NCBI GenBank assembly: GCA_038064595.1
Contig: JBBTSV010000001.1
Coordinates: 1,915 to 65,914 of the forward strand
Direction of reading: 5' to 3'
DNA: 64,000 nt
Origin: Patescibacteria group bacterium
GTDB taxonomy: Bacteria; Patescibacteriota; Minisyncoccia; Phycocordibacterales; Phycocordibacteraceae
The notes under the pieces were generated by a model. It did no database searches. It was not told the DNA's origin and saw only the letters and a program-made list of their open reading frames with translations. Of this stretch, positions 769 through 55,688 are shown piece by piece; within the stretch, counting starts at the first letter, position 1; each line of letters opens with the position of its first letter. A program made the translations under genes and the position numbers.

Positions 769-797
769 TTGACAAATATTTGACAGAGCTTTATTAT
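769..797 (+). promoter_or_regulatory. sigma70-like promoter TTGACA-17-TATTAT; predicted TSS about 804, coinciding with an ATG (leaderless)
   Basis: Consensus -35 at 769-774, 17-nt spacer, TATTAT at 792-797. Confidence 0.5.
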
Positions 798-803
798 TAT
801 TGC

Positions 804-1163
804 ATGGAAAATCCTGAAATGTGGAAGAGTGGAAGTCGTGCGGCGGAAAACAGGGCGAGTGAGCGTGCTTGGGTTGACTCCCTGTCTGGTGAGCAAGAGG
901 CTAACGCCAAGCTCGAGGCAGCGCGGGAGGTTGATCAAATCGATGCGCAGTTGATCGAACTCGACAATAACTTACAAGAATTGCAGACCAAGCTCGCAGA
1001 AGGGAACGCCAAGGCCGCGACTATAGGGGCAGATGAAGGCCTGCGCAAGCTCTCGATTACTCTTGGACGTCAGTTGCAGGCTGAGATTACTGCTCTCGAG
1101 ACACAACGCACCTCGCTCACTGATCGAAAGGCAAAACTTTCCTCATCGGGTACGCTTCAGTGA
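804..1163 (+). CDS. coiled-coil hypothetical protein / upstream ORF of prfB, terminated by an in-frame UGA
   Basis: ATG at the predicted TSS; the last ~27 codons (ITALETQRTSLTDRKAKL..) resemble the RF2 N-terminal helix; TGA at 1161-1163 is in the same frame as the prfB ATG at 1176. Confidence 0.35.
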   Translation: MENPEMWKSGSRAAENRASERAWVDSLSGEQEANAKLEAAREVDQIDAQLIELDNNLQELQTKLAEGNAKAATIGADEGLRKLSITLGRQLQAEITALETQRTSLTDRKAKLSSSGTLQ

Positions 1164-1175
1164 TCGTTCTGGGTC

Positions 1176-2051
1176 ATGGAGGATCGAGAGACGCGACTAT
1201 TAGCATTGGAGGCGCTGATGGCGTCGCCAGAGTTTTGGAGTGATAAAGAGGAGGCACAGCGCCTCGTCGCCGAGTATCAAAACCTCAAGGAAGGGATATC
1301 TGGCGATCCGCATGACGCGGGCAACGCCACCCTAGCTATCCTCGCGGGCGCAGGCGGAGACGACGCTGAAGACTTTGCCCGCCTCCTCCGGCGAATGTAT
1401 GAAGGCTACGCTGATAAGAAGGGGTGGCGTGTGCGTGAGCTGCATGCCAATGAGAACGACCACGGCGGGTACCGTAATCTCCTCCTTGAGATCTCGGGCT
1501 CTCTCGCCTATGGCCGACTGAAACATGAAGCAGGGGTGCATAGGCTTGTTCGCCAGTCTCCCTTTAATGCCAACGCAAAGCGGCAGACAAGCTTTGCGCT
1601 CGTTGAGGTGCTCCCGACTCTGGTAGCAAGCGACAAAGTCGAGCTTTCTCCAGACGATCTGGAGATCCAGTTCGCCCGCTCGGGCGGCGCAGGCGGCCAG
1701 AACGTGAATAAGCGTGAGACCGCGGTACGAATAGTCCACACGCCCTCCAATCTCTCTGTGCACGTCTCAAGCGAGCGCAGCCAGCTCGCCAACCGTGAGA
1801 AGGCGATGGAGCTCCTCAAAGCCAAAATATACAGAAAACAGGAGCAGGAGCAGGAGCGGGAGGCAAAAGGCCGGTCAATTGCAGCGACCACGGCGAATGA
1901 GTGGGGGAGTCAGATCCGCTCCTATGTGCTCCACCCCTATAAGATGGTGAAGGACCACCGTACCGAGTATGAATCCGGGAATCCCGAGAAGGTCCTTGAG
2001 GGCGATCTCGACGGCTTCATAGACGCGATGGAGTCACGTGCGGTAGAATAG
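1176..2051 (+). CDS. prfB: peptide chain release factor 2 (SPF and GGQ motifs), short N-terminal domain
   Basis: QSPFNANAKRQTSF (SPF), SGGAGGQNVNK (GGQ), and overall collinearity with RF2. Confidence 0.85.
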   Translation: MEDRETRLLALEALMASPEFWSDKEEAQRLVAEYQNLKEGISGDPHDAGNATLAILAGAGGDDAEDFARLLRRMYEGYADKKGWRVRELHANENDHGGYRNLLLEISGSLAYGRLKHEAGVHRLVRQSPFNANAKRQTSFALVEVLPTLVASDKVELSPDDLEIQFARSGGAGGQNVNKRETAVRIVHTPSNLSVHVSSERSQLANREKAMELLKAKIYRKQEQEQEREAKGRSIAATTANEWGSQIRSYVLHPYKMVKDHRTEYESGNPEKVLEGDLDGFIDAMESRAVE

Positions 2052-2751: not shown

Positions 2752-3681
2752 ATGAACTGGATGGTCCTCAAACGCATGTTCGTTTCCGGATGGAAGAACT
2801 TTGCCCGCGGCGGCGCGGTCTCAGCCGCGACCGTGGTGATCATGACCGTCACTCTCGCGATTATCGGCTCACTCATTTTTCTCTCGGCACTTCTCTCCTT
2901 CACCCTCACGTCAATCAAGGAAAAGGTGGATGTGTCGGTTTACTTTGTGACCACCGCCAAGGAGTCCGACATTCTTTCTGTACGGAGCCAGATTATGAAG
3001 CTCCCTCAAGTCGCTGAAGTCACGTACACGTCGGCGATCGACGCGCTCGCCGCATTTCGTGCGCGATATGCTACTGACCACCTGACGCTTCAGGCACTTG
3101 AAGAGGTGGGCGGTAATCCATTCAACGCGTCACTTTCCGTACGGGCAAAGGATCCTTCAGAGTACGAAAGTATTGTTAACTTTCTTGAAGCGTCTCCGAC
3201 ACTCTCTTCAGGCGGTACGTCAATTGTCGACCGTATCAACTACGATGCTAACAAGAAAGAAACGATCGACCGTCTCTCACTCTGGATCCAGGCGGCCGAT
3301 AGGATTGGTCTTGTAGTGAGTATCCTCTTTGCGCTTGCGTCGATCCTTATTGCGTTTGCTACCGTGCGTCTCGCGATCTATACCGCCAAAGACGAGATCG
3401 CGGTCATGCGGCTTGTGGGAGCGAGCAATGCGTACATCCAAGGCCCCTTCATAGTGACGGGGCTCATCACCGGTGGGTTTGCCGCCGGTTTGGTGCTTCT
3501 CCTGTTGTGGGGAGGGACGTCGTATGCCGGTGAGCGGATGGCGGTATGGTTGGGCGGCTTTAACGTCGCGTCATATTTCAGTGCACACTTCACACTCATT
3601 TTTCTCATCCTTGCTGGATCGGGGATCCTCCTTGGGGCGCTGGCATCACTACTTGCTATCCACAAGTATCTGAAGGCATAA
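2752..3681 (+). CDS. ftsX: cell division permease-like protein FtsX
   Basis: FtsX topology: TM segment, large periplasmic loop, three C-terminal TMs; immediately after ftsE. Confidence 0.85.
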   Translation: MNWMVLKRMFVSGWKNFARGGAVSAATVVIMTVTLAIIGSLIFLSALLSFTLTSIKEKVDVSVYFVTTAKESDILSVRSQIMKLPQVAEVTYTSAIDALAAFRARYATDHLTLQALEEVGGNPFNASLSVRAKDPSEYESIVNFLEASPTLSSGGTSIVDRINYDANKKETIDRLSLWIQAADRIGLVVSILFALASILIAFATVRLAIYTAKDEIAVMRLVGASNAYIQGPFIVTGLITGGFAAGLVLLLLWGGTSYAGERMAVWLGGFNVASYFSAHFTLIFLILAGSGILLGALASLLAIHKYLKA

Positions 3682-17800: not shown

Positions 17801-17822
17801 AAGGCGGTATACTATACGTACT

Positions 17823-18683
17823 ATGTCCGTTGATGCTTGGTCATACCGTGAAGCGTTTGATCGCAACAGAAAGCTCATTAGTGACGATCATCAAGAAAAA
17901 CTCGAGCAGGCGCGCGTCGCGATCGCGGGGCTCGGCGGGGTCGGCGGGATCCACGCCACCACGCTTGCGCGGCTTGGGATAGGGCACTTCAGCATCGCTG
18001 ACCCCGATACGTTTGAGCTCTCCAATATCAATCGGCAACAAGGGGCGAACACCACCACCCTTAACATGCCCAAGAACATCACCCTCGAGCGGCTCATAAA
18101 AGAGATTAACCCCACAGCCGAGGTGCGCGTGAGCGGCGCCCTGACCGAAGAAAATATCGACGCCTTTCTCGAGGGAGCAACGCTTGCCGTCGACGGTATC
18201 GATTTCTTCACTATAAGTGCCCGCCGTCTCCTCTACCGCACATGCCGCGCGCGCGGGATCCCGGTCCTGGGCGCCGGACCAATCGGCTTTGGGTCCTCGA
18301 TGCTCAACTTCAGCCCCACTGGCATGAGCTTCGACGACTACATGAACATCACCGATGCCTTGCCGGAGCGTGAGCAGATACTCCACTTCGCGCTTGGTAT
18401 CGCACCGCGCATGCTCCAACGTTCCTACTTTGCGCCCACGACTATCGACTTCGCGGGTCATCACGCCCCCTCCTCCGTGCTGGGGACCCTCGCGTGTGCC
18501 AACTTCGTTGGTTGTGAGGCGTACAAGATTATCGTCGGACTCCCGTATGAGAGTGCACCGGTTTCCTGGCACTTCGACCCCTACGTGCGAAAGCTCCGAC
18601 GCTGCAACCTATGGGGAGGGAATCGTAACCCCATTCAGCGCTTCAAAAAATGGTATTTTATACATATCCTTAAATTGAAATGA
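17823..18683 (+). CDS. ThiF/MoeB/HesA-family E1-like adenylyltransferase
   Basis: VAIAGLGGVGG nucleotide-binding loop, NINRQ motif. Confidence 0.75.
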   Translation: MSVDAWSYREAFDRNRKLISDDHQEKLEQARVAIAGLGGVGGIHATTLARLGIGHFSIADPDTFELSNINRQQGANTTTLNMPKNITLERLIKEINPTAEVRVSGALTEENIDAFLEGATLAVDGIDFFTISARRLLYRTCRARGIPVLGAGPIGFGSSMLNFSPTGMSFDDYMNITDALPEREQILHFALGIAPRMLQRSYFAPTTIDFAGHHAPSSVLGTLACANFVGCEAYKIIVGLPYESAPVSWHFDPYVRKLRRCNLWGGNRNPIQRFKKWYFIHILKLK

Positions 18684-19324
18684 CCGCAACGCTCACTAAG
18701 AGGGTCGGCATACGCTCGCTCGACACCATATTCCGCACGACCCAGCTCATTACCTACCCCTTCAACTGGTGGCTCAGTCGGCGTATCAAGCTGACGGCAC
18801 GGGTGCCCTATACCTTCAGCGTACCGCGCGGGACCCTGGTGCTTGCAAATCACCGGAGTCTCTTTGATCCGTTTTTGATCGCGTATCACTTGGGGATGGA
18901 GAATTGGCTCCACACGATCCCCACGCGCTATCCGGCGACTCCTGACTATACGCTTCGCCCCATCCTTGGTTCGGTGATACGTGCGCTCGGCGCCTACAAC
19001 ATCGGTAGGACACCGATGGAGCGCGCCAAGAAGCTCGTGTTTACCCGTGACCTGCTTGATCGCGGATGTACGGTCCTCCTTTTTCCAGAAGGGAAGATTG
19101 TAGATAACGGGGAAGTGGTCGCCGAGTTTCAGCGGGGTATCAAGATGCTTTTCGCCCAGGACTACCCGATCGTCCTCGTCCGCCTCTCGGGCTTCAACAC
19201 CCACTCATTTCTGCGTCCCCATACCGTCGCCGACGCCCGTATTGAGTACAGCCCCGTTATCCGAGGGACTCCCGAGATGAAGCTCGAGCAACTCCGCACG
19301 TTTTACGGCTTACGCGATGTATGA
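18680..19324 (+). CDS. PlsC-family (lysophospholipid/OlsA-like) acyltransferase
   Basis: HXXXXD motif NHRSLFD and FPEG block. Confidence 0.75.
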   Translation: MTATLTKRVGIRSLDTIFRTTQLITYPFNWWLSRRIKLTARVPYTFSVPRGTLVLANHRSLFDPFLIAYHLGMENWLHTIPTRYPATPDYTLRPILGSVIRALGAYNIGRTPMERAKKLVFTRDLLDRGCTVLLFPEGKIVDNGEVVAEFQRGIKMLFAQDYPIVLVRLSGFNTHSFLRPHTVADARIEYSPVIRGTPEMKLEQLRTFYGLRDV

Positions 19325-19926
19325 TCTGGGATCTGGTGCGCAGTAGCGAGACGACGCGCGCGGCGCTCTCTACCGCCGGACATCAGGCAGCCACGCGCGC
19401 GGCACAGCGCGCCCTGCAGATCAGCGACCCGCGTGGAGAGCACCACACCATTGCTATCGAGAAAGATGTACTTGGGAAGCCGGAGGCGCGTGTGCTGGGG
19501 AGTGCCCAGTCAGTCGCGGTGTCCATATCACACGCAGCTCCGTTTGTCTGTGCGGTCGCGGATACGGCGCCGGTACTGCTCGGTACCGACATCGAGCGTA
19601 TCCGCCCGTGCACCACTGCCGTTTGGGAGGCCTGTCTCACCCCCGCGGAAAAAGCGTTCATCGCGGCCGCGCCGCGCCGCGAGCGCGAGATGCTCCAGAT
19701 TCGCGCGTGGTCGCTCAAGGAGGCGGTACTGAAGGCATTTGGGGTGGGGTTGCGCGTGCATCCGCGCAATGTTGATGTGACCAATGCGCTTGGGGCGACC
19801 ACCTCGACCGTGCGTATTGGATGGCGGGGGGTGTGGCATACTGCAACGGTAGAGTGGATGCACCTTAACCCCACCTATGTCGCGGTGGCGGTTGCATTTC
19901 CTTTTTCAGCTCGTACACTAGAGTGA
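19321..19926 (+). CDS. 4'-phosphopantetheinyl transferase (Sfp/EntD type)
   Basis: GTDIE and WSLKEAVLKA motifs. Confidence 0.75.
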   Translation: MIWDLVRSSETTRAALSTAGHQAATRAAQRALQISDPRGEHHTIAIEKDVLGKPEARVLGSAQSVAVSISHAAPFVCAVADTAPVLLGTDIERIRPCTTAVWEACLTPAEKAFIAAAPRREREMLQIRAWSLKEAVLKAFGVGLRVHPRNVDVTNALGATTSTVRIGWRGVWHTATVEWMHLNPTYVAVAVAFPFSARTLE

Positions 19927-20198
19927 TGGATGTTCGCGATTTTGTGCTCACGGCTATTGCAGAAACGCTTGACCTTCCGCTGGCCGTGGTGCGTGACGAC
20001 AGTAAGCTCGTCGACTTGGCCGAAGACTCGATTAAGCTCTTTGAGCTCCTAATCCGGCTCGAGAACCTTTTTTCATATCGCGTAAGTTATGAGGCGATTG
20101 TGCATATTGAGACAGTGGGCGATGTCATCGCCTACATAGAGACGCTCCCGATCGACCGCGGCGTGCTCCAGGCTACTACCCAGAAGAAAGCCGCATGA
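19923..20198 (+). CDS. acyl carrier protein (second copy, DSI serine)
   Basis: 91 aa, LAEDSIKLFELL. Confidence 0.6.
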   Translation: MMDVRDFVLTAIAETLDLPLAVVRDDSKLVDLAEDSIKLFELLIRLENLFSYRVSYEAIVHIETVGDVIAYIETLPIDRGVLQATTQKKAA

Positions 20199-20809
20199 GC
20201 GGGAACCCGCGTTGTGTGGTGCTCACCCTTCCCGCAGAAAAGCAGGCGGCCCAAGATATCGTCCGGCGTGTCTACGCGGCCCAAGGTTATGACTTGAGCG
20301 AGGGGGTGTTTGTCCGCTTCCTGCGCACCCCGAATGCTGTGGTGTGGGGGCTCTTCGAAGAGGATGTCCTCTTTGGCACCATCTCCATTATCCCTGACAG
20401 TGAGGCAGGACTCCCGATGGACTCGCTCTATGCTGAAGAGCTCGCCCCCTTTCGAGCCGAGGGGAAGAAAATAGCAGAAGTCGTCCAGTTTGCGATCGAT
20501 CATACGCTCAAAAAACCATCACCCTTTGAAGCGGTCCCGCTTCTTATCACCGTCCTCTCCTATGCACGCACCCAAAAAATTGACACCATCTGCATCTCAA
20601 TCCACCCAAAGCACAGCCAGTTCTACCACATGCTCGGTTTTGAAAAAATAGGTGACCTCAAGCAGTATCAGGCAGTCGCGGCACCAGCCGTTGCGTATGC
20701 GCTGCCGCTTGTCGCGTGGGAAACTAATCCCTTTTTTGGTAACTTTCTGCGCAACGCGATTCGCCCTGATGGTGGGGTCTCTAGTGGAGAAGAGCGAGCT
20801 GCAATATAA
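20195..20809 (+). CDS. N-acyl amino acid synthase (FeeM/OlsB-like GNAT-fold N-acyltransferase)
   Basis: About 200-aa protein with the layout of FeeM-family N-acyl amino acid synthases; terminal gene of the ACP/ligase/PPTase operon. Confidence 0.55.
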   Translation: MSGNPRCVVLTLPAEKQAAQDIVRRVYAAQGYDLSEGVFVRFLRTPNAVVWGLFEEDVLFGTISIIPDSEAGLPMDSLYAEELAPFRAEGKKIAEVVQFAIDHTLKKPSPFEAVPLLITVLSYARTQKIDTICISIHPKHSQFYHMLGFEKIGDLKQYQAVAAPAVAYALPLVAWETNPFFGNFLRNAIRPDGGVSSGEERAAI

Positions 20810-27395: not shown

Positions 27396-28477
27396 TGCTA
27401 CACTATAGGTCTATGACTCACAGCAAGGTCCGACCCTACTTTCTCGTGCTGGCATTGGCGGGTACCTGTGTGCTCACCGCGCTTGTATTTGCACCCTTTC
27501 TAAAGCCGCTCGCACTCGCCGCGGTCTTTGCGGTCGTCCTGCAGGGGCTCTATCGTAGGGTCGGAACGGTGTTTCGTGGGTGGCCGAGCATCTCTGCTCT
27601 CGTCACCGTTCTCGTGAGCGTAGTGCTCATCGTACTCCCTCTATCCCTCATCGGGACGCTCGTCGCACATGAAGCGAACATGCTCTACCTCTCTCTTGAG
27701 AGCACCGGGGGTGGGCGTACAGCACTCGCCCAGATGGTTCTCAATATCGATGCGAGCTACGGGAGTGTTGTACCGGGATTGAGCGCATTTGCCGAGAATG
27801 CTTCAGCGAATATCGATGCGTACATAAAAGAAGGGTTGCGGTGGGTCACCGACAATGCCGGCGGCATATTCTCTAGTTTCTCGCGAATCCTCCTCTCATT
27901 CTTTATTTTCTTTATCGCCCTCTACTACCTCCTGCGAGACGGGAAGCGCGTTCGCCAGTTTCTTATCCACCTCTCGCCGCTCGGCGACATTGAAGATACC
28001 CACGTACTCGATCGACTCGAGCTTGCGGTCAACTCGGTGATTAAGGGGAATCTCGTCATCGCGCTCGTGCAAGGCACCCTCACCACCATTGGCCTCACCC
28101 TCTTTGGGGTGCCGAGCGCGATTCTCTGGGGTATGGTTGCCGCTATCGCGGCGCTCATTCCGGGCGTTGGTACCAGTCTCGTCCTCGCCCCGTCGATTCT
28201 TTTTCTCTTTTTTGTCGGAGAGACCAGCCAGGCAGTGGGACTACTCATCTGGAGTGTCATTGCCGTTGGTCTTATCGATAACGTCCTCGGCCCCAAGCTG
28301 GTGGGCCAAGGGATGAATATGCACCCGCTCCTTGTCCTCTTGTCAGTGCTTGGCGGACTCCTCTTTTTTGGTCCATCGGGGATCTTTCTTGGCCCGCTCT
28401 CGGTGAGTCTCCTCTTCGCACTTCTCTCGCTCTACACAGATTTTTCTCATCCTCCGCAGTCGGGACATCTCTCGTAG
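27395..28477 (+). CDS. AI-2E family transporter (UPF0118/PerM-like)
   Basis: Eight TM helices with the typical AI-2E layout. Confidence 0.7.
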   Translation: MLHYRSMTHSKVRPYFLVLALAGTCVLTALVFAPFLKPLALAAVFAVVLQGLYRRVGTVFRGWPSISALVTVLVSVVLIVLPLSLIGTLVAHEANMLYLSLESTGGGRTALAQMVLNIDASYGSVVPGLSAFAENASANIDAYIKEGLRWVTDNAGGIFSSFSRILLSFFIFFIALYYLLRDGKRVRQFLIHLSPLGDIEDTHVLDRLELAVNSVIKGNLVIALVQGTLTTIGLTLFGVPSAILWGMVAAIAALIPGVGTSLVLAPSILFLFFVGETSQAVGLLIWSVIAVGLIDNVLGPKLVGQGMNMHPLLVLLSVLGGLLFFGPSGIFLGPLSVSLLFALLSLYTDFSHPPQSGHLS

Positions 28478-31182: not shown

Positions 31183-31300
31183 CTTGTATCAAGAGGCAGT
31201 GAGAGAATTGGCTCGATGACCTGCCGGCAACACGGAGCACCAGCTCGCAGTGTGCCTCTTCCAACCCGCTCGGGAAAGATACCACTATCTTTTTTCGTGC
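31183..31300 (+). promoter_or_regulatory. SAM-I-clan riboswitch aptamer with intrinsic terminator (AAAGATA-CCAC-TATCTTT plus T-run) in the metK leader
   Basis: UAUCAAGAG..GGC..GAGAGA..GGCUCGAUGA..CCGGCAAC matches the SAM-I conserved core; P1 AAGAGGCA/UGCCUCUU. Confidence 0.6.
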
Positions 31301-31327: not shown

Positions 31328-32266
31328 ATGATCAGAACTGCTGAGTTTGTGTCTCCGGGTCACCCGGATAAGCGGTGCGACTTTATTGCTGACTCTATCC
31401 TCGACGCTTACCTCGCAGGCGATGCGGGGAGCCGGGTCGCGATTGAGGTGATGGGTGGCCACAACCTCGTCACGATTAATGGTGAAGTCACATCGGGGGT
31501 AAAGCCCGACATCATCGCGCTCGTGAAGGGGATCGTCGGTGAGGAGTATAAGGTGATTGAGAACGTTGCGCTCCAGAGTAAGGAGATCGGGCGCGGCGTC
31601 GACACAGGGGGCGCGGGCGACCAGGGGATCATGAAGGGCTATGCGACCAGTGAGACCGAGACTCTGATGCCACTTGAGTATGAGCTTGCGCGCAATCTCT
31701 GTCAGAAGGTCTATGAAAAGTATCCCTATGACGGCAAGACGCAGGTGACGGTTGAAGACGGTGAGGTGACCACGGTTGTCGTGAGCTTTCAGAACACAAA
31801 GAATGCCGAGCTCCTCCCCTTGGTACAGAGCGTGATCAACGCAAAGGAGTATCTCCTCAATCCTGCCGGCGAGTGGGTTCAGGGTGGCTTTGACGCCGAC
31901 ACCGGCCTCTCGGGGAGAAAACTTATTGTGGATAATTATGGGCCGGAGGTGGCTATTGGCGGGGGCTCATTCTCGGGCAAGGATTACACCAAGGTTGATC
32001 GCTCGGGTGCGTACATGGCGCGTCGCGTCGCGGTCGAGCTCCTCAAAGAGCGCAGAGCGAGGGCAGTGCATACCAAGCTCGCGTATGCGATCGGCAAGGC
32101 TGAGGCGGTGATGGCAGTGGCCGTTGTCGATGGGGTCGAGGAGCCGATCACCGGCTATGACCTCACGCCGCGCGGCATCCGCGCGAATCTTGCGCTCGAC
32201 ACCGTCCGCTACACCGACACCTGTACCTGGGGACACTTTGGGCGAGGCTTCACCTGGGACGCCTAG
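31328..32266 (+). CDS. metK: S-adenosylmethionine synthetase
   Basis: GHPDKRCD, GAGDQGIM, GGGSFSGKDYTKVDRSGAY. Confidence 0.85.
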   Translation: MIRTAEFVSPGHPDKRCDFIADSILDAYLAGDAGSRVAIEVMGGHNLVTINGEVTSGVKPDIIALVKGIVGEEYKVIENVALQSKEIGRGVDTGGAGDQGIMKGYATSETETLMPLEYELARNLCQKVYEKYPYDGKTQVTVEDGEVTTVVVSFQNTKNAELLPLVQSVINAKEYLLNPAGEWVQGGFDADTGLSGRKLIVDNYGPEVAIGGGSFSGKDYTKVDRSGAYMARRVAVELLKERRARAVHTKLAYAIGKAEAVMAVAVVDGVEEPITGYDLTPRGIRANLALDTVRYTDTCTWGHFGRGFTWDA

Positions 32267-39290: not shown

Positions 39291-39297
39291 AGATTGT

Positions 39298-39702
39298 GGA
39301 GGTGTCGAGAGTCGAACTCGAGTCCGATTCTGGCCATGAGAGCGCTTCTACGACGCATAGTCACCGTTATCTTTAAGATAGGATGCGAGGAACGGAGACG
39401 AAACCATTCCTACCCGATCCCTTATTTAGACGCAGCGGGCGGGAAGTCCGCGCGTCGATTCTACAGATGATTCCACCTCACTCTCCGACTGTAGAAACTC
39501 AGGGGAGTGAAATGTCGCGAGGCGAGAGGCCGTTAGGCGACCGCGTACGCGAACGTAAAGTCCTTACTACCGAAGTAGGGAGACTTTACGCTTGCAAGAG
39601 TGTTCTTGGCAAGTTTGGTTGCTCGTTAGATTAGAGTGATAGCCGAGCGTGCACTGCGTCGCACGTCTTTCAAGGTACAGACCGTCAAAGCCGGTCACCC
39701 CC
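39298..39702 (-). ncRNA. ssrA: tmRNA (ssrA), one-piece
   Basis: 5' GGGGGUG-ACCGGCUUUGACGGUCUG (acceptor plus D-analog) pairs with the 3' CACCUCC-A end (G3-U70), T-arm UCGAG-UUCGACU-CUCGA; downstream of smpB on the same strand. Confidence 0.75.
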
Positions 39703-42465: not shown

Positions 42466-42474
42466 TTTTTAGTC

Positions 42475-42547
42475 CGCCCCCCTGGACTCGAACCAGGAAC
42501 CGCAGAGGTATAAGCTCTGTGCTCTAACCATTGAGCTAGGGGCGGAT
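42475..42547 (-). tRNA. tRNA-Ile (anticodon UAU)
   Basis: Acceptor CCGCCCC/GGGGCGG, anticodon stem CAGAG/CTCTG with loop CTTATAC (UAU), T-arm CCTGG-TTCGAGT-CCAGG, discriminator A. Confidence 0.7.
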
Positions 42548-47608: not shown

Positions 47609-47625
47609 CGATATACTGGTCCTCT

Positions 47626-48756: not shown

Positions 48757-48778
48757 AAGAGATGATATACTCCATACT

Positions 48779-50242: not shown

Positions 50243-50246
50243 GGGG

Positions 50247-50933
50247 GTGGTGTATACTCTGCACATGAAATTTTCTTTTGGGTCGCCAGACAAAAAGCCA
50301 GACAAAAGCATAGACGCACTTGAAGAGTTGCGACTCAGTAGGGAGGCTGGTAATGTCGCAGGACTCGCAGAAGACCACATCAAGTATCTGGAAGAGCAGC
50401 ACGAGACAGAAGGACTCACGGGACTCAAGACTCGTAAAGTCTTTGACCGAGAGCTCGAGGCCGCGCTGGGGCTCTTGAGCGGGAAGATACAGGAGCGTCG
50501 TGCGCACGCAGAGGCACCAAAGGTCGTTTCAGTTATCATGGTCGACCTCGATGATTTCAAAAAAATAAACGATACGCGCGGCCACGCGGTAGGTGATGCG
50601 GTGCTCCGAAGCGTAGCCGAGGTTATCAGTGAGTGCGTACGTGCTTCAGACACAGCGGCGCGCTACGGGGGTGAGGAGCTCGTGGTGCTCATGCCCGGCG
50701 CGACCGCGAAGGTTGCCGCACAGCATGCTGAGGACATTCGAGCTCGCATCGAACAACTCACCTTCGATCAGTACCCTGACTTGCGAGTGACGGGGAGCTT
50801 AGGCATCGCTGAAGTTACTGAGGTGCATGAGAATGACGAGTCTGATGTGCTGGTAAAGAATGCAGATAGGGCTATGTATGAAGCCAAAGCGAATGGCAAA
50901 AACCGTGTTGAAATCTATCAAGGAGGGCGGTAA
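50247..50933 (+). CDS. GGDEF-domain protein (GGEEL variant)
   Basis: RYGGEEL in GGDEF-domain context, DDFKKIND. Confidence 0.75.
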   Translation: MVYTLHMKFSFGSPDKKPDKSIDALEELRLSREAGNVAGLAEDHIKYLEEQHETEGLTGLKTRKVFDRELEAALGLLSGKIQERRAHAEAPKVVSVIMVDLDDFKKINDTRGHAVGDAVLRSVAEVISECVRASDTAARYGGEELVVLMPGATAKVAAQHAEDIRARIEQLTFDQYPDLRVTGSLGIAEVTEVHENDESDVLVKNADRAMYEAKANGKNRVEIYQGGR

Positions 50934-55188: not shown

Positions 55189-55314
55189 CTCGCTACCCCT
55201 CCTTTGCGTTTTGCGGGAGGGGAAGCCATTTCTATACGAGAAAAAATGGAAACACCCGCGCAGGAGCGTGGGTGTTTCCATTTAGTAGACCGGGTCGGTA
55301 AGCCGAATTCTGTT

Positions 55315-55597
55315 CCCGCTCTTTCTTGAAGAAAGGGCGGGAGGCGATCATTTATCTGGGATGGTACTTACGCACCACCTCGAGCGGCACTCCCCGCTCT
55401 TTCTTGACGAAAGGGCGGGACACGGCCTTGCATGCAGGTAAGGATTTGTTCGTTGCATTCCGGTCTTGCGACCGGCCTATTCCACAAGGGAATCCGCAGC
55501 CTCTCGGCATTGGCGTCTCTGTAGTCACCTCTATCCTCGCGGACGACGGGCGTTACCCGCTACCTATCTACCCGCTCTTTCCGTAAGAAAGGGCGGG
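55315..55597. repeat. three REP-like hairpins CCCGCTCTTTC-(TTGAAG/TTGACG/CGTAAG)-AAAGGGCGGG at 55315-55341, 55393-55419 and 55571-55597
   Basis: 27-nt imperfect palindromes repeated three times with irregular spacing, downstream of a RAYT-like gene. Confidence 0.65.
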
Positions 55598-55688
55598 TGC
55601 ATGTTCGGACTTTCCTCCCCAATACCCCAAAAGGGCAGTGGAGCGATCGTCTAACCCGGTCTGTTTCCATTATACCACACCTGCATTT

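Follow-up and report, generated by a model that had tools for sequence, protein, structure and literature searches.

The prfB locus

The gene for release factor 2 (RF2), prfB, is preceded at close range, and in the same reading frame, by a UGA-terminated open reading frame (ORF) in the stretch of DNA considered here, which comprises 64,000 nucleotides (nt) of a Paceibacteria-type Patescibacteria metagenome-assembled genome from Hainich groundwater (GenBank assembly GCA_038064595.1, contig JBBTSV010000001.1, positions 1,915 to 65,914). We refer to this whole stretch as the window; its region 600-2400 was checked directly. All features of the locus lie on the forward strand. The leftmost is a tRNA-Thr(CGU) gene at 675-748 (identified with both ARAGORN and Rfam), a conserved left neighbour of prfB in Paceibacteria; of 148 distinct related loci that were retrieved from collections of genomes and metagenomes, 52 have a tRNA-Thr(CGU) within 400 nt on the upstream side of prfB. 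The window copy is followed by a sigma-70-like promoter at 769-797, comprising TTGACA (769-774), a 17-nt spacer and TATTAT (792-797), and matching the consensus at 11 of 12 positions. The -10 element ends 6 nt before the ATG at 804, from which a leaderless transcript is predicted. The upstream ORF occupies 804-1163 and encodes 119 amino acids (aa) before its TGA stop; as listed (780-1163) it opens with TTG, and its first ATG lies at 804 rather than 805. The TGA, at 1161-1163, follows a CAG (Gln) codon and is separated from prfB by a 12-nt spacer at 1164-1175, TCGTTCTGGGTC, which holds no Shine-Dalgarno (SD) core, -10 hexamer or start codon, and in which codon -2 is TGG. The prfB gene itself (1176-2051) encodes a short-form RF2 of 291 aa and ends in TAG, and is followed by its conserved downstream neighbours ftsE (2059-2736; Pfam ABC_tran) and ftsX (2752-3681; Pfam FtsX_ECD and FtsX).

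This anatomy, which we regard as secure, had for the most part been described in an initial annotation of the window, and direct inspection bears that description out: RF2 with its SPF and GGQ motifs begins at ATG 1176, a UGA-ended ORF of the same frame stops 12 nt before it, and the near-consensus promoter and leaderless ORF of some 119 aa are where they were said to be. The annotation had also allowed that a hidden 1-nt indel might conceal a CUU-UGA-C frameshift site. Bases 660-2060 are 100% identical across five independent assemblies from different runs (loci L001-L005), so that an assembly indel does not account for the in-frame TGA, and that proposal is excluded. As the annotation supposed, UGA serves as an ordinary stop in the window, where it ends 16 of 60 proxy genes (~27%); genome-wide recoding of UGA was considered and rejected on this ground, and on the presence of an RF2 with SPF.

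Initiation in this genome appears to depend little on SD sequences. An SD core precedes only 4 of the 56 window genes, while 20 of the 56 have a TAnnnT hexamer 5-8 nt ahead of their ATG, often inside gene clusters too. These hexamers frequently read TATACT or TACACT, sometimes with an upstream TG (examples fall in 2737-2751, 17801-17822, 27396-27412, 47609-47625, 48757-48778 and 50243-50264), and many window genes seem to own a promoter and a leaderless mRNA. The spacer before ATG 1176 has neither an SD core nor a TAnnnT at 5-8 nt, and an internal promoter for a leaderless prfB was rejected, as no such hexamer occurs there or at the homologous position in related loci that carry the upstream gene. 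By comparison, those of the loci that were inspected have a -35/-10 pair or a -10-like hexamer near the first ATG of the upstream ORF; the hexamer lies 6-8 nt before this ATG in seven of them, and up to ~9 nt before it, or ambiguously placed, in some others. The locus thus combines a short spacer, a prfB that lacks an SD or promoter of its own, and a leaderless upstream ORF that has a promoter. Because prfB lacks both signals in a genome that is SD-poor and rich in leaderless genes, its translation is probably coupled to that of the upstream ORF.

A short RF2 and a separate upstream gene

That the downstream gene encodes RF2 is clear from its domains (PCRF, 1e-39; RF-1, 6e-37), from the SPF (QSPFNAN) and GGQ (GGAGGQ) motifs visible in its translation, and from its best PDB matches, which are solved RF2 structures. 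Its best NCBIfam match is TIGR00020 prfB, at 342.8 bits as against 224-227 bits for prfA; the truncation of domain 1 keeps the score under the curated threshold of 370. Among the 120 top-ranking homologues (82-100% identity), lengths run from 277 to 299 aa, or from 285 to 299 aa once two products called from an internal Met are set aside, and those inspected begin M..(D/E)R.TRL.ELEALMASPDFW. Alignment to long RF2 sequences and to solved structures places Met1 of the window protein at canonical residue 26, the codon right after the classical shift site. In 9fy1_8, residues 26-67 are the counterpart of the protein's residues 1-42, and residues 101-360 that of its main body, which leaves one internal gap of ~47-50 residues in domain 1 (~47 columns in alignment A3). 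A full-length domain 1 (canonical residue 1 to ~115) is therefore not present, as the first 25 and some 50 internal residues are absent, and the same truncation recurs in more than 100 of the closest homologues. In model bacteria the missing part of domain 1 touches the L11 stalk and RF3.

The same start is found throughout the clade. In the 148 related loci the homologous ATG is the first possible prfB start, and an RF2 of ~290 aa is the rule. The tRNA-Thr(CGU) gene ends 0-3 nt before this ATG in 17 of the 148 loci and 4-10 nt before it in 11 more, and a TAnnnT -10 hexamer lies 5-8 nt before it in 62; one or the other directly adjoins the start in 90 loci, where nothing upstream can accordingly be part of RF2. 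These comparisons strongly support the view that RF2 is naturally short here, that this is the normal form in the clade, and that the ancestral first reading frame (ORF1) and its +1 frameshift site have been lost. The initial annotation had offered an N-terminally short RF2 as one of two readings, and this is the one that the homologues uphold. It had also remarked that the TGA falls almost exactly where other bacteria carry the frameshift site. The position is as described, and the coincidence is trivial: since the start of a short prfB coincides with the former shift position, any gene that abuts it will have its stop there.

Where the tRNA abuts prfB, its 3' processing would leave an mRNA that starts at the AUG, and hence a message made leaderless by tRNA punctuation, such as occurs in mitochondria. 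At locus L007 (2421-2497), for instance, the tRNA ends at 2494 and the prfB ATG is at 2495, and L033, L034, L048, L052, L104, L105, L107 and L149 are similar.

The upstream ORF belongs to a protein family of its own. A single-sequence search with the window ORF matches only itself, and the family was recovered solely by means of a profile built from homologues taken from the loci, after ORFs that precede several of the nearest prfB relatives were found to align with it at 19-30% identity. Its members have in common the motif M..E..G.E..RGPS.AAR.HA.EH at the N-terminus and [VIL]Q at the C-terminus, and measure 92-124 aa across the loci. Profile searches of 5.8e9 proteins (word-indexed) and 1.84e9 proteins (exhaustive) returned credible members of 56-118 aa, none with a PCRF or RF-1 domain; a single protein of 3472 aa, matched over 66 residues, was taken as spurious. 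In all 16 distinct genomic contexts retrieved, hereafter the family loci, the family member lies directly upstream of prfB (the members P0133 and P0137 stand outside this count). Between the closest pairs, dN/dS over the whole ORF is 0.10-0.22 at a dS of 0.75-1.4, and by these estimates purifying selection acts on the protein that the upstream ORF encodes, which evolves about twice as fast as RF2. These comparisons show the family to be small, fast-evolving and, across the collections searched, confined to one Paceibacteria clade. One of its loci, L166 (JAQVIY010000003.1), has a second ORF, of 92 aa and rich in charged residues (1978-2256), upstream of the tRNA that precedes the pair.

No relationship to RF2 could be found in this family. 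An AlphaFold2 model of the window protein is a helical hairpin (helices 4-73 and 78-114; mean predicted local distance difference test score 83.5), for which the Foldseek matches in the PDB are all helical hairpins of a generic kind (best E = 0.14), with no release factor domain among them. No Pfam or NCBIfam match reaches its cut-off, and hhalign of the family profile against canonical RF2 domain 1 gives a probability of 0.4%. The proposal in the initial annotation, that the upstream ORF encodes the expected N-terminal helix of RF2, is rejected on this evidence. An origin by expansion of the ancestral ORF1 is also unlikely, given the wrong frame, the lack of homology, and the relatives in which a tRNA or promoter stands at the ATG. 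Alignment, profiles, dN/dS and hhalign thus agree on the outcome that the annotation had itself listed as counting against its reading, namely an upstream ORF that is a conserved but unrelated gene, and an RF2 that simply starts at 1176. The two ORFs are thereby shown to be separate genes, on what is predicted to be one leaderless transcript.

Stop codon, spacer and frame at the junction

No canonical frameshift site is present at the junction, which reads ACG CTT CAG TGA T and lacks CTT-TGA-C. The sequence upstream of the TGA, TCATCGGGTACGCTTCAG, contains no SD-like element (GGAGG, AGGGGG or similar), and the +1 frame after the TGA encodes DRSGSWRIERRDY, 13 codons in all, before it is closed by a TAG at 1201-1203, precisely as the initial annotation had it. 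Neither CTT before the TGA nor C after it occurs in any of the 16 family loci. As a positive control, the same procedure recovered CTTTGAC in the distant long-form prfB genes of L160, L161, L163, L164 and L165, and can therefore detect frameshift sites where they are present; in three reconstructed canonical sites ORF1 has 17-24 codons and an SD-like element is found. Applied to Paceibacteria-type loci, the procedure found no canonical site.

What is conserved at the junction is the identity of the stop codon and the frame. The upstream ORF ends in TGA in all 16 family loci, preceded by a Gln codon in 14 of them. Thirteen loci have a 12-nt spacer between it and prfB, and single loci have spacers of 15, 9 and 3 nt; all four lengths are multiples of three, so that the two ORFs share a frame in 16 of 16 loci. 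Further, a second in-frame TGA stands at codon -2 in half of the loci (8/16), and this codon is never TAA or TAG. Among the other eight it is TGG, TGC, TGT, CGA or CGT in six and GTC in L089, while L177, with its 3-nt spacer, has no codon -2. The base after the first TGA is A in nine loci, T in five, G in two and C in none. At L086 (2474-2494) the spacer forms a 9-nt tandem repeat that includes the stop, CAGTGAACA then GAGTGAACA then ATG, with GTGA kept in both copies, and a similar repeat form is seen in L088, L182, L168, L166, L175, L180 and L010.

Several controls suggest that this pattern is particular to the junction. Over the same loci the prfB stop is TAA in six, TAG in four and TGA in none, the ftsE stops vary too, and the prfB-ftsE spacers range from 7 to 152 nt, with 4 of 10 divisible by three. 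TGA ends only 3 of the 25 non-overlapping same-strand junctions in the window, where it is the rarest stop, and 3 of 30 unrelated ORFs upstream of prfB. A general tendency of genes upstream of prfB to adopt its frame, or to end in TGA, was considered and is not seen in distant relatives, whose upstream ORFs are distributed 19/14/21 over the frames and include those same 3 in 30 TGA stops. A Fisher test of 16/16 against 3/30 gives p = 1e-9, a value which carries no phylogenetic correction and which shared ancestry inflates. As synonymous sites are saturated between subfamilies, a neutral transition from TGA to TAA would be expected to have become fixed several times, and we conclude from this comparative pattern that selection acts on the TGA. 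For the shared frame the case is no more than suggestive: the three indel events, even if counted as independent, give p ~0.04 and may reflect repeat slippage.

Two further observations concern frames and stops in the surroundings. In close relatives that carry a different, unrelated gene between tRNA-Thr and prfB, this gene is in frame with prfB in five of six cases (L009 391-1080, L011 1796-2488, L012 2054-2446, L093 2099-2473 and L094 2042-2428, the exception being L014 2080-2490). These genes encode an unclassified, predicted multi-pass membrane protein of 229-230 aa, one response-regulator-receiver-like protein, and others; they end in TAG, TAA or TGA at 12-48 nt from prfB, and their frame bias may be due to chance. 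Within the window, five consecutive ORFs at 17823-20809 (+) overlap by -4, -4, -1 and -4 nt and end in TGA, the -4 overlap being ATGA. Since many TGA stops of the window sit at stop-start overlaps of this kind, few junctions have a TGA that stands free (the 3 in 25 given above).

Explanations for the junction and relation to known systems

The junction may answer to RF2, a possibility to which we give almost, if not quite, even weight on the strength of the conserved features. If translation is coupled as proposed, ribosomes would reach the prfB AUG only after translating the upstream ORF, would terminate at its UGA, and would re-initiate 12 nt downstream with no SD sequence. When RF2 is plentiful, fast termination and re-initiation at AUG 1176 would give a basal supply of the 291-aa RF2; when it is scarce, near-cognate decoding of the UGA would permit in-frame readthrough into prfB, and the resulting fusion of 415 aa, which would contain an intact RF2, might serve as an emergency supply. 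Such readthrough competition is the only homeostatic scheme that we could construct which uses all of the conserved features, although this specific route, with the fusion as its product, is rather unlikely to be the one at work. In its other reading the initial annotation had proposed an RF2-sensing device of this general kind, and the invariant TGA, the invariant frame and the frequent second TGA lend it comparative support that falls short of proof.

A good deal weighs against an RF2-responsive junction. Plain termination and re-initiation would not be homeostatic, as RF2 synthesis would then depend on RF2, and re-initiation of that sort should favour UAA over UGA. With regard to readthrough, an ORF in frame downstream of the stop is found in 16 of 16 loci, but the second in-frame TGA intervenes in 8 of 16 and would strongly cut the output of fusion. 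The prfB ATG is retained in all 16, and the base after the TGA is never C, the weakest context. A search with RNAalifold over the 16 junctions, covering both a readthrough stimulator and a start-masking hairpin, found no conserved RNA structure at the stop (z = -0.84 for the fold of the window junction), and no natural fusion of the upstream ORF to RF2 was found among the 5.8e9 word-indexed and 1.84e9 exhaustively searched proteins. The 16 loci are related by descent, and counts of 16 out of 16 overstate the number of independent events; the three changes in spacer length may be slippage of 3-nt or 9-nt units; and the TGA lies within a conserved GTGA motif that occurs twice, such that the constraint could be on the RNA sequence. 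Moreover, junctions in which an ATG comes shortly after a stop, with no SD in between, are frequent in this genome. In an unsupported neighbour-joining tree of RF2, which is weak evidence, the family falls inside a clade of loci without the upstream ORF, and relatives that lack the gene are interspersed with carriers, which indicates that it is dispensable.

The upstream ORF might instead be simply an ordinary neighbour, a lineage-specific small gene in an operon with prfB, coupled to it in the usual SD-independent manner, whose TGA, spacer and frame were inherited without regulatory meaning. Purifying selection over the whole length of the ORF and the conserved N-terminal motif speak for this reading; short junctions that lack an SD are frequent in the window; the gene has been lost in sister lineages with no replacement; and the lack of fused homologues and of conserved RNA structure, together with spacer indels explicable by repeat slippage, is in keeping with it. 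We consider this a credible account, if one that we are inclined to doubt. What it leaves poorly explained is the stop codon: with synonymous sites saturated and protein identity down to 19-30%, the single G-to-A change that would yield TAA was never fixed in 16 lineages, over the same tree on which the prfB and ftsE stops changed repeatedly. Further, TGA is otherwise the rarest stop at non-overlapping junctions in the window, and the conserved copy sits ahead of the one gene whose product reads it. Taken together, the comparisons suggest a junction whose conserved features point at RF2, and for which ordinary adjacency is a poor explanation.

Constraint might also act on an RNA motif, GUGA(A/U)C, present as one copy or as a 9-nt tandem and serving as an SD-like element or initiation enhancer, within which the TGA is merely embedded. 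The base before the TGA is G in 14 of the 16 first copies and in all eight second copies, and the second copy is conserved despite its position beyond the end of the upstream ORF's coding sequence. The tandem form of L086, with similar forms in L088, L182, L168, L175, L180 and L010, and the single TGA of L177, which stands at the position of the second copy elsewhere, are also in keeping with such a motif. The window's GTGATC is complementary at six of six positions to GAUCAC, part of the typical 3' tail of 16S rRNA, with which the motif might pair; the window itself contains no rRNA gene. Against the motif, the genome barely uses SD sequences (the 4 of 56 genes noted above), the first copy is too far from the AUG for an SD role (an estimated aligned spacing of ~15 nt), and GTGA is not seen before starts at the other short junctions of the window. 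L166 naturally has CAA-UGA, which breaks the GUGA. On balance we hold a purely RNA-level motif to be improbable.

A leader or arrest peptide in the manner of TnaC, in which the nascent chain would stall the ribosome at the UGA by inhibiting release by RF2, is less probable still. TnaC likewise ends at UGA and acts on RF2, and the conserved C-terminal [VIL]-Q and UGA stop of the family would suit such a role, but an ORF of 92-124 aa under purifying selection throughout would not; its strongest motif (RGPS.AAR.HA.EH) is N-terminal and would lie far outside the exit tunnel at termination, and neither a ligand nor an attenuator structure is evident at the locus. Finally, the notion that both ORFs are one gene, either a split or pseudogenized long RF2 or one in which a sequencing or assembly error hides the frameshift site, accords with the shared frame, with the lack of canonical residues 1-25 and with the helical character, like that of RF2 domain 1, of the upstream ORF, but is scarcely credible, and refuted as far as sequence evidence goes, by the five identical assemblies, the hhalign and Foldseek results, the universality in the clade of a short RF2 with the same start (including at loci where a tRNA abuts it), the two in-frame stops in half of the family loci, and a predicted product of 415 aa that exceeds the three reconstructed canonical RF2 proteins (353-364 aa).

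Frameshifting in prfB is a textbook case of translational autoregulation, and a whole class of Patescibacteria carries a minimal RF2 that begins where the shift site used to be and has lost a large part of domain 1. One sub-lineage has a junction whose conserved features all point at RF2, namely a stop that only RF2 reads, a frame in common with prfB and a tandem UGA. Should this junction be functional, it would offer a second and testable solution to the control of RF2, and would link termination-factor homeostasis with leaderless, SD-free translation. If readthrough is indeed the route, it would be the first release-factor feedback loop in bacteria based on readthrough, and a rare regain of autoregulation once lost. 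That this Paceibacteria lineage re-invented RF2 autoregulation after losing the +1 frameshift, with a tandem UGA-N6-UGA as the ancestral state, is an idea we entertain with considerable doubt. If the junction is not functional, then it provides a clean and well-controlled case of a meaningful-looking in-frame stop that arose from ordinary gene adjacency.

Elsewhere in the window, Rfam identifies a SAM-I riboswitch at 31183-31285 (+), directly upstream of an ORF at 31328-32266, a transfer-messenger RNA at 39294-39702 (-; 82.8 bits), which ARAGORN did not report, and a class A RNase P RNA at 55283-55662 (-). A tRNA-Ile with the anticodon TAT (UAU) at 42472-42545 (-) may point to non-standard decoding of AUA, which bacteria usually read by means of a lysidine-modified CAU tRNA.

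Surveys of hundreds to more than 12,000 genomes indicate that programmed ribosomal frameshifting (PRF) in prfB is probably ancestral, has been lost in about one third of bacteria, and is regained rarely if at all (PMC12421855, PMC13245932). These studies describe no substitute mechanism and no system based on an upstream ORF, and Patescibacteria are unmentioned in them; literature searches on UGA-terminated ORFs upstream of prfB, on Patescibacteria prfB and on leaderless translation in Parcubacteria found nothing relevant. The present junction resembles classical +1 PRF of the E. coli type (SD-like element, CUU UGA C, codon 26) in that a UGA specific to RF2 lies just upstream of the RF2 body, here within five codons of the equivalent of canonical position 26, and in that RF2 would compete with an alternative decoding event at this codon. 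PRF sites also keep the identity of their stop as UGA (PMC12421855), as is the case here. Unlike the classical arrangement, the junction has a closed +1 frame and lacks the CUU slippery codon, the internal SD element and a C following the UGA; its upstream ORF encodes a protein under selection and has 92-124 codons, rather than being an ORF1 of 17-24 codons (as in the three reconstructed sites), and it lies in frame 0 rather than -1 relative to an RF2 that has its own conserved AUG. The locus falls outside the canonical prfB PRF class, as none of the four defining features tested was found.

Among other systems, the regulation of plant eRF1, by stop-codon readthrough plus nonsense-mediated mRNA decay (PMC5397192), offers a parallel in principle, as there too the expression of a release factor is set by the efficiency of stop recognition in its own mRNA, and readthrough is what is sensed. 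The plant system is eukaryotic, however, senses the factor's own terminator, and has mRNA decay as its output, whereas here the stop is that of a separate cistron upstream of the factor's gene, and a fusion protein would be the product of readthrough. TnaC shares with this locus an upstream ORF that ends in UGA, at which termination by RF2 would control downstream expression, but it is a peptide of 24 residues with tunnel-proximal conservation and a ligand, unlike the protein of ~100-120 aa, with its N-terminal motif, found here. The layout also resembles the termination-reinitiation coupling of prokaryotes that are SD-poor or rich in leaderless genes, with which the locus shares the short distance, the absence of an SD or promoter before the downstream gene, and the leaderless first cistron. 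Coupling of the generic kind requires no particular stop codon and no common frame, whereas at this junction the stop is TGA, and the two genes are in frame, in all 16 family loci.

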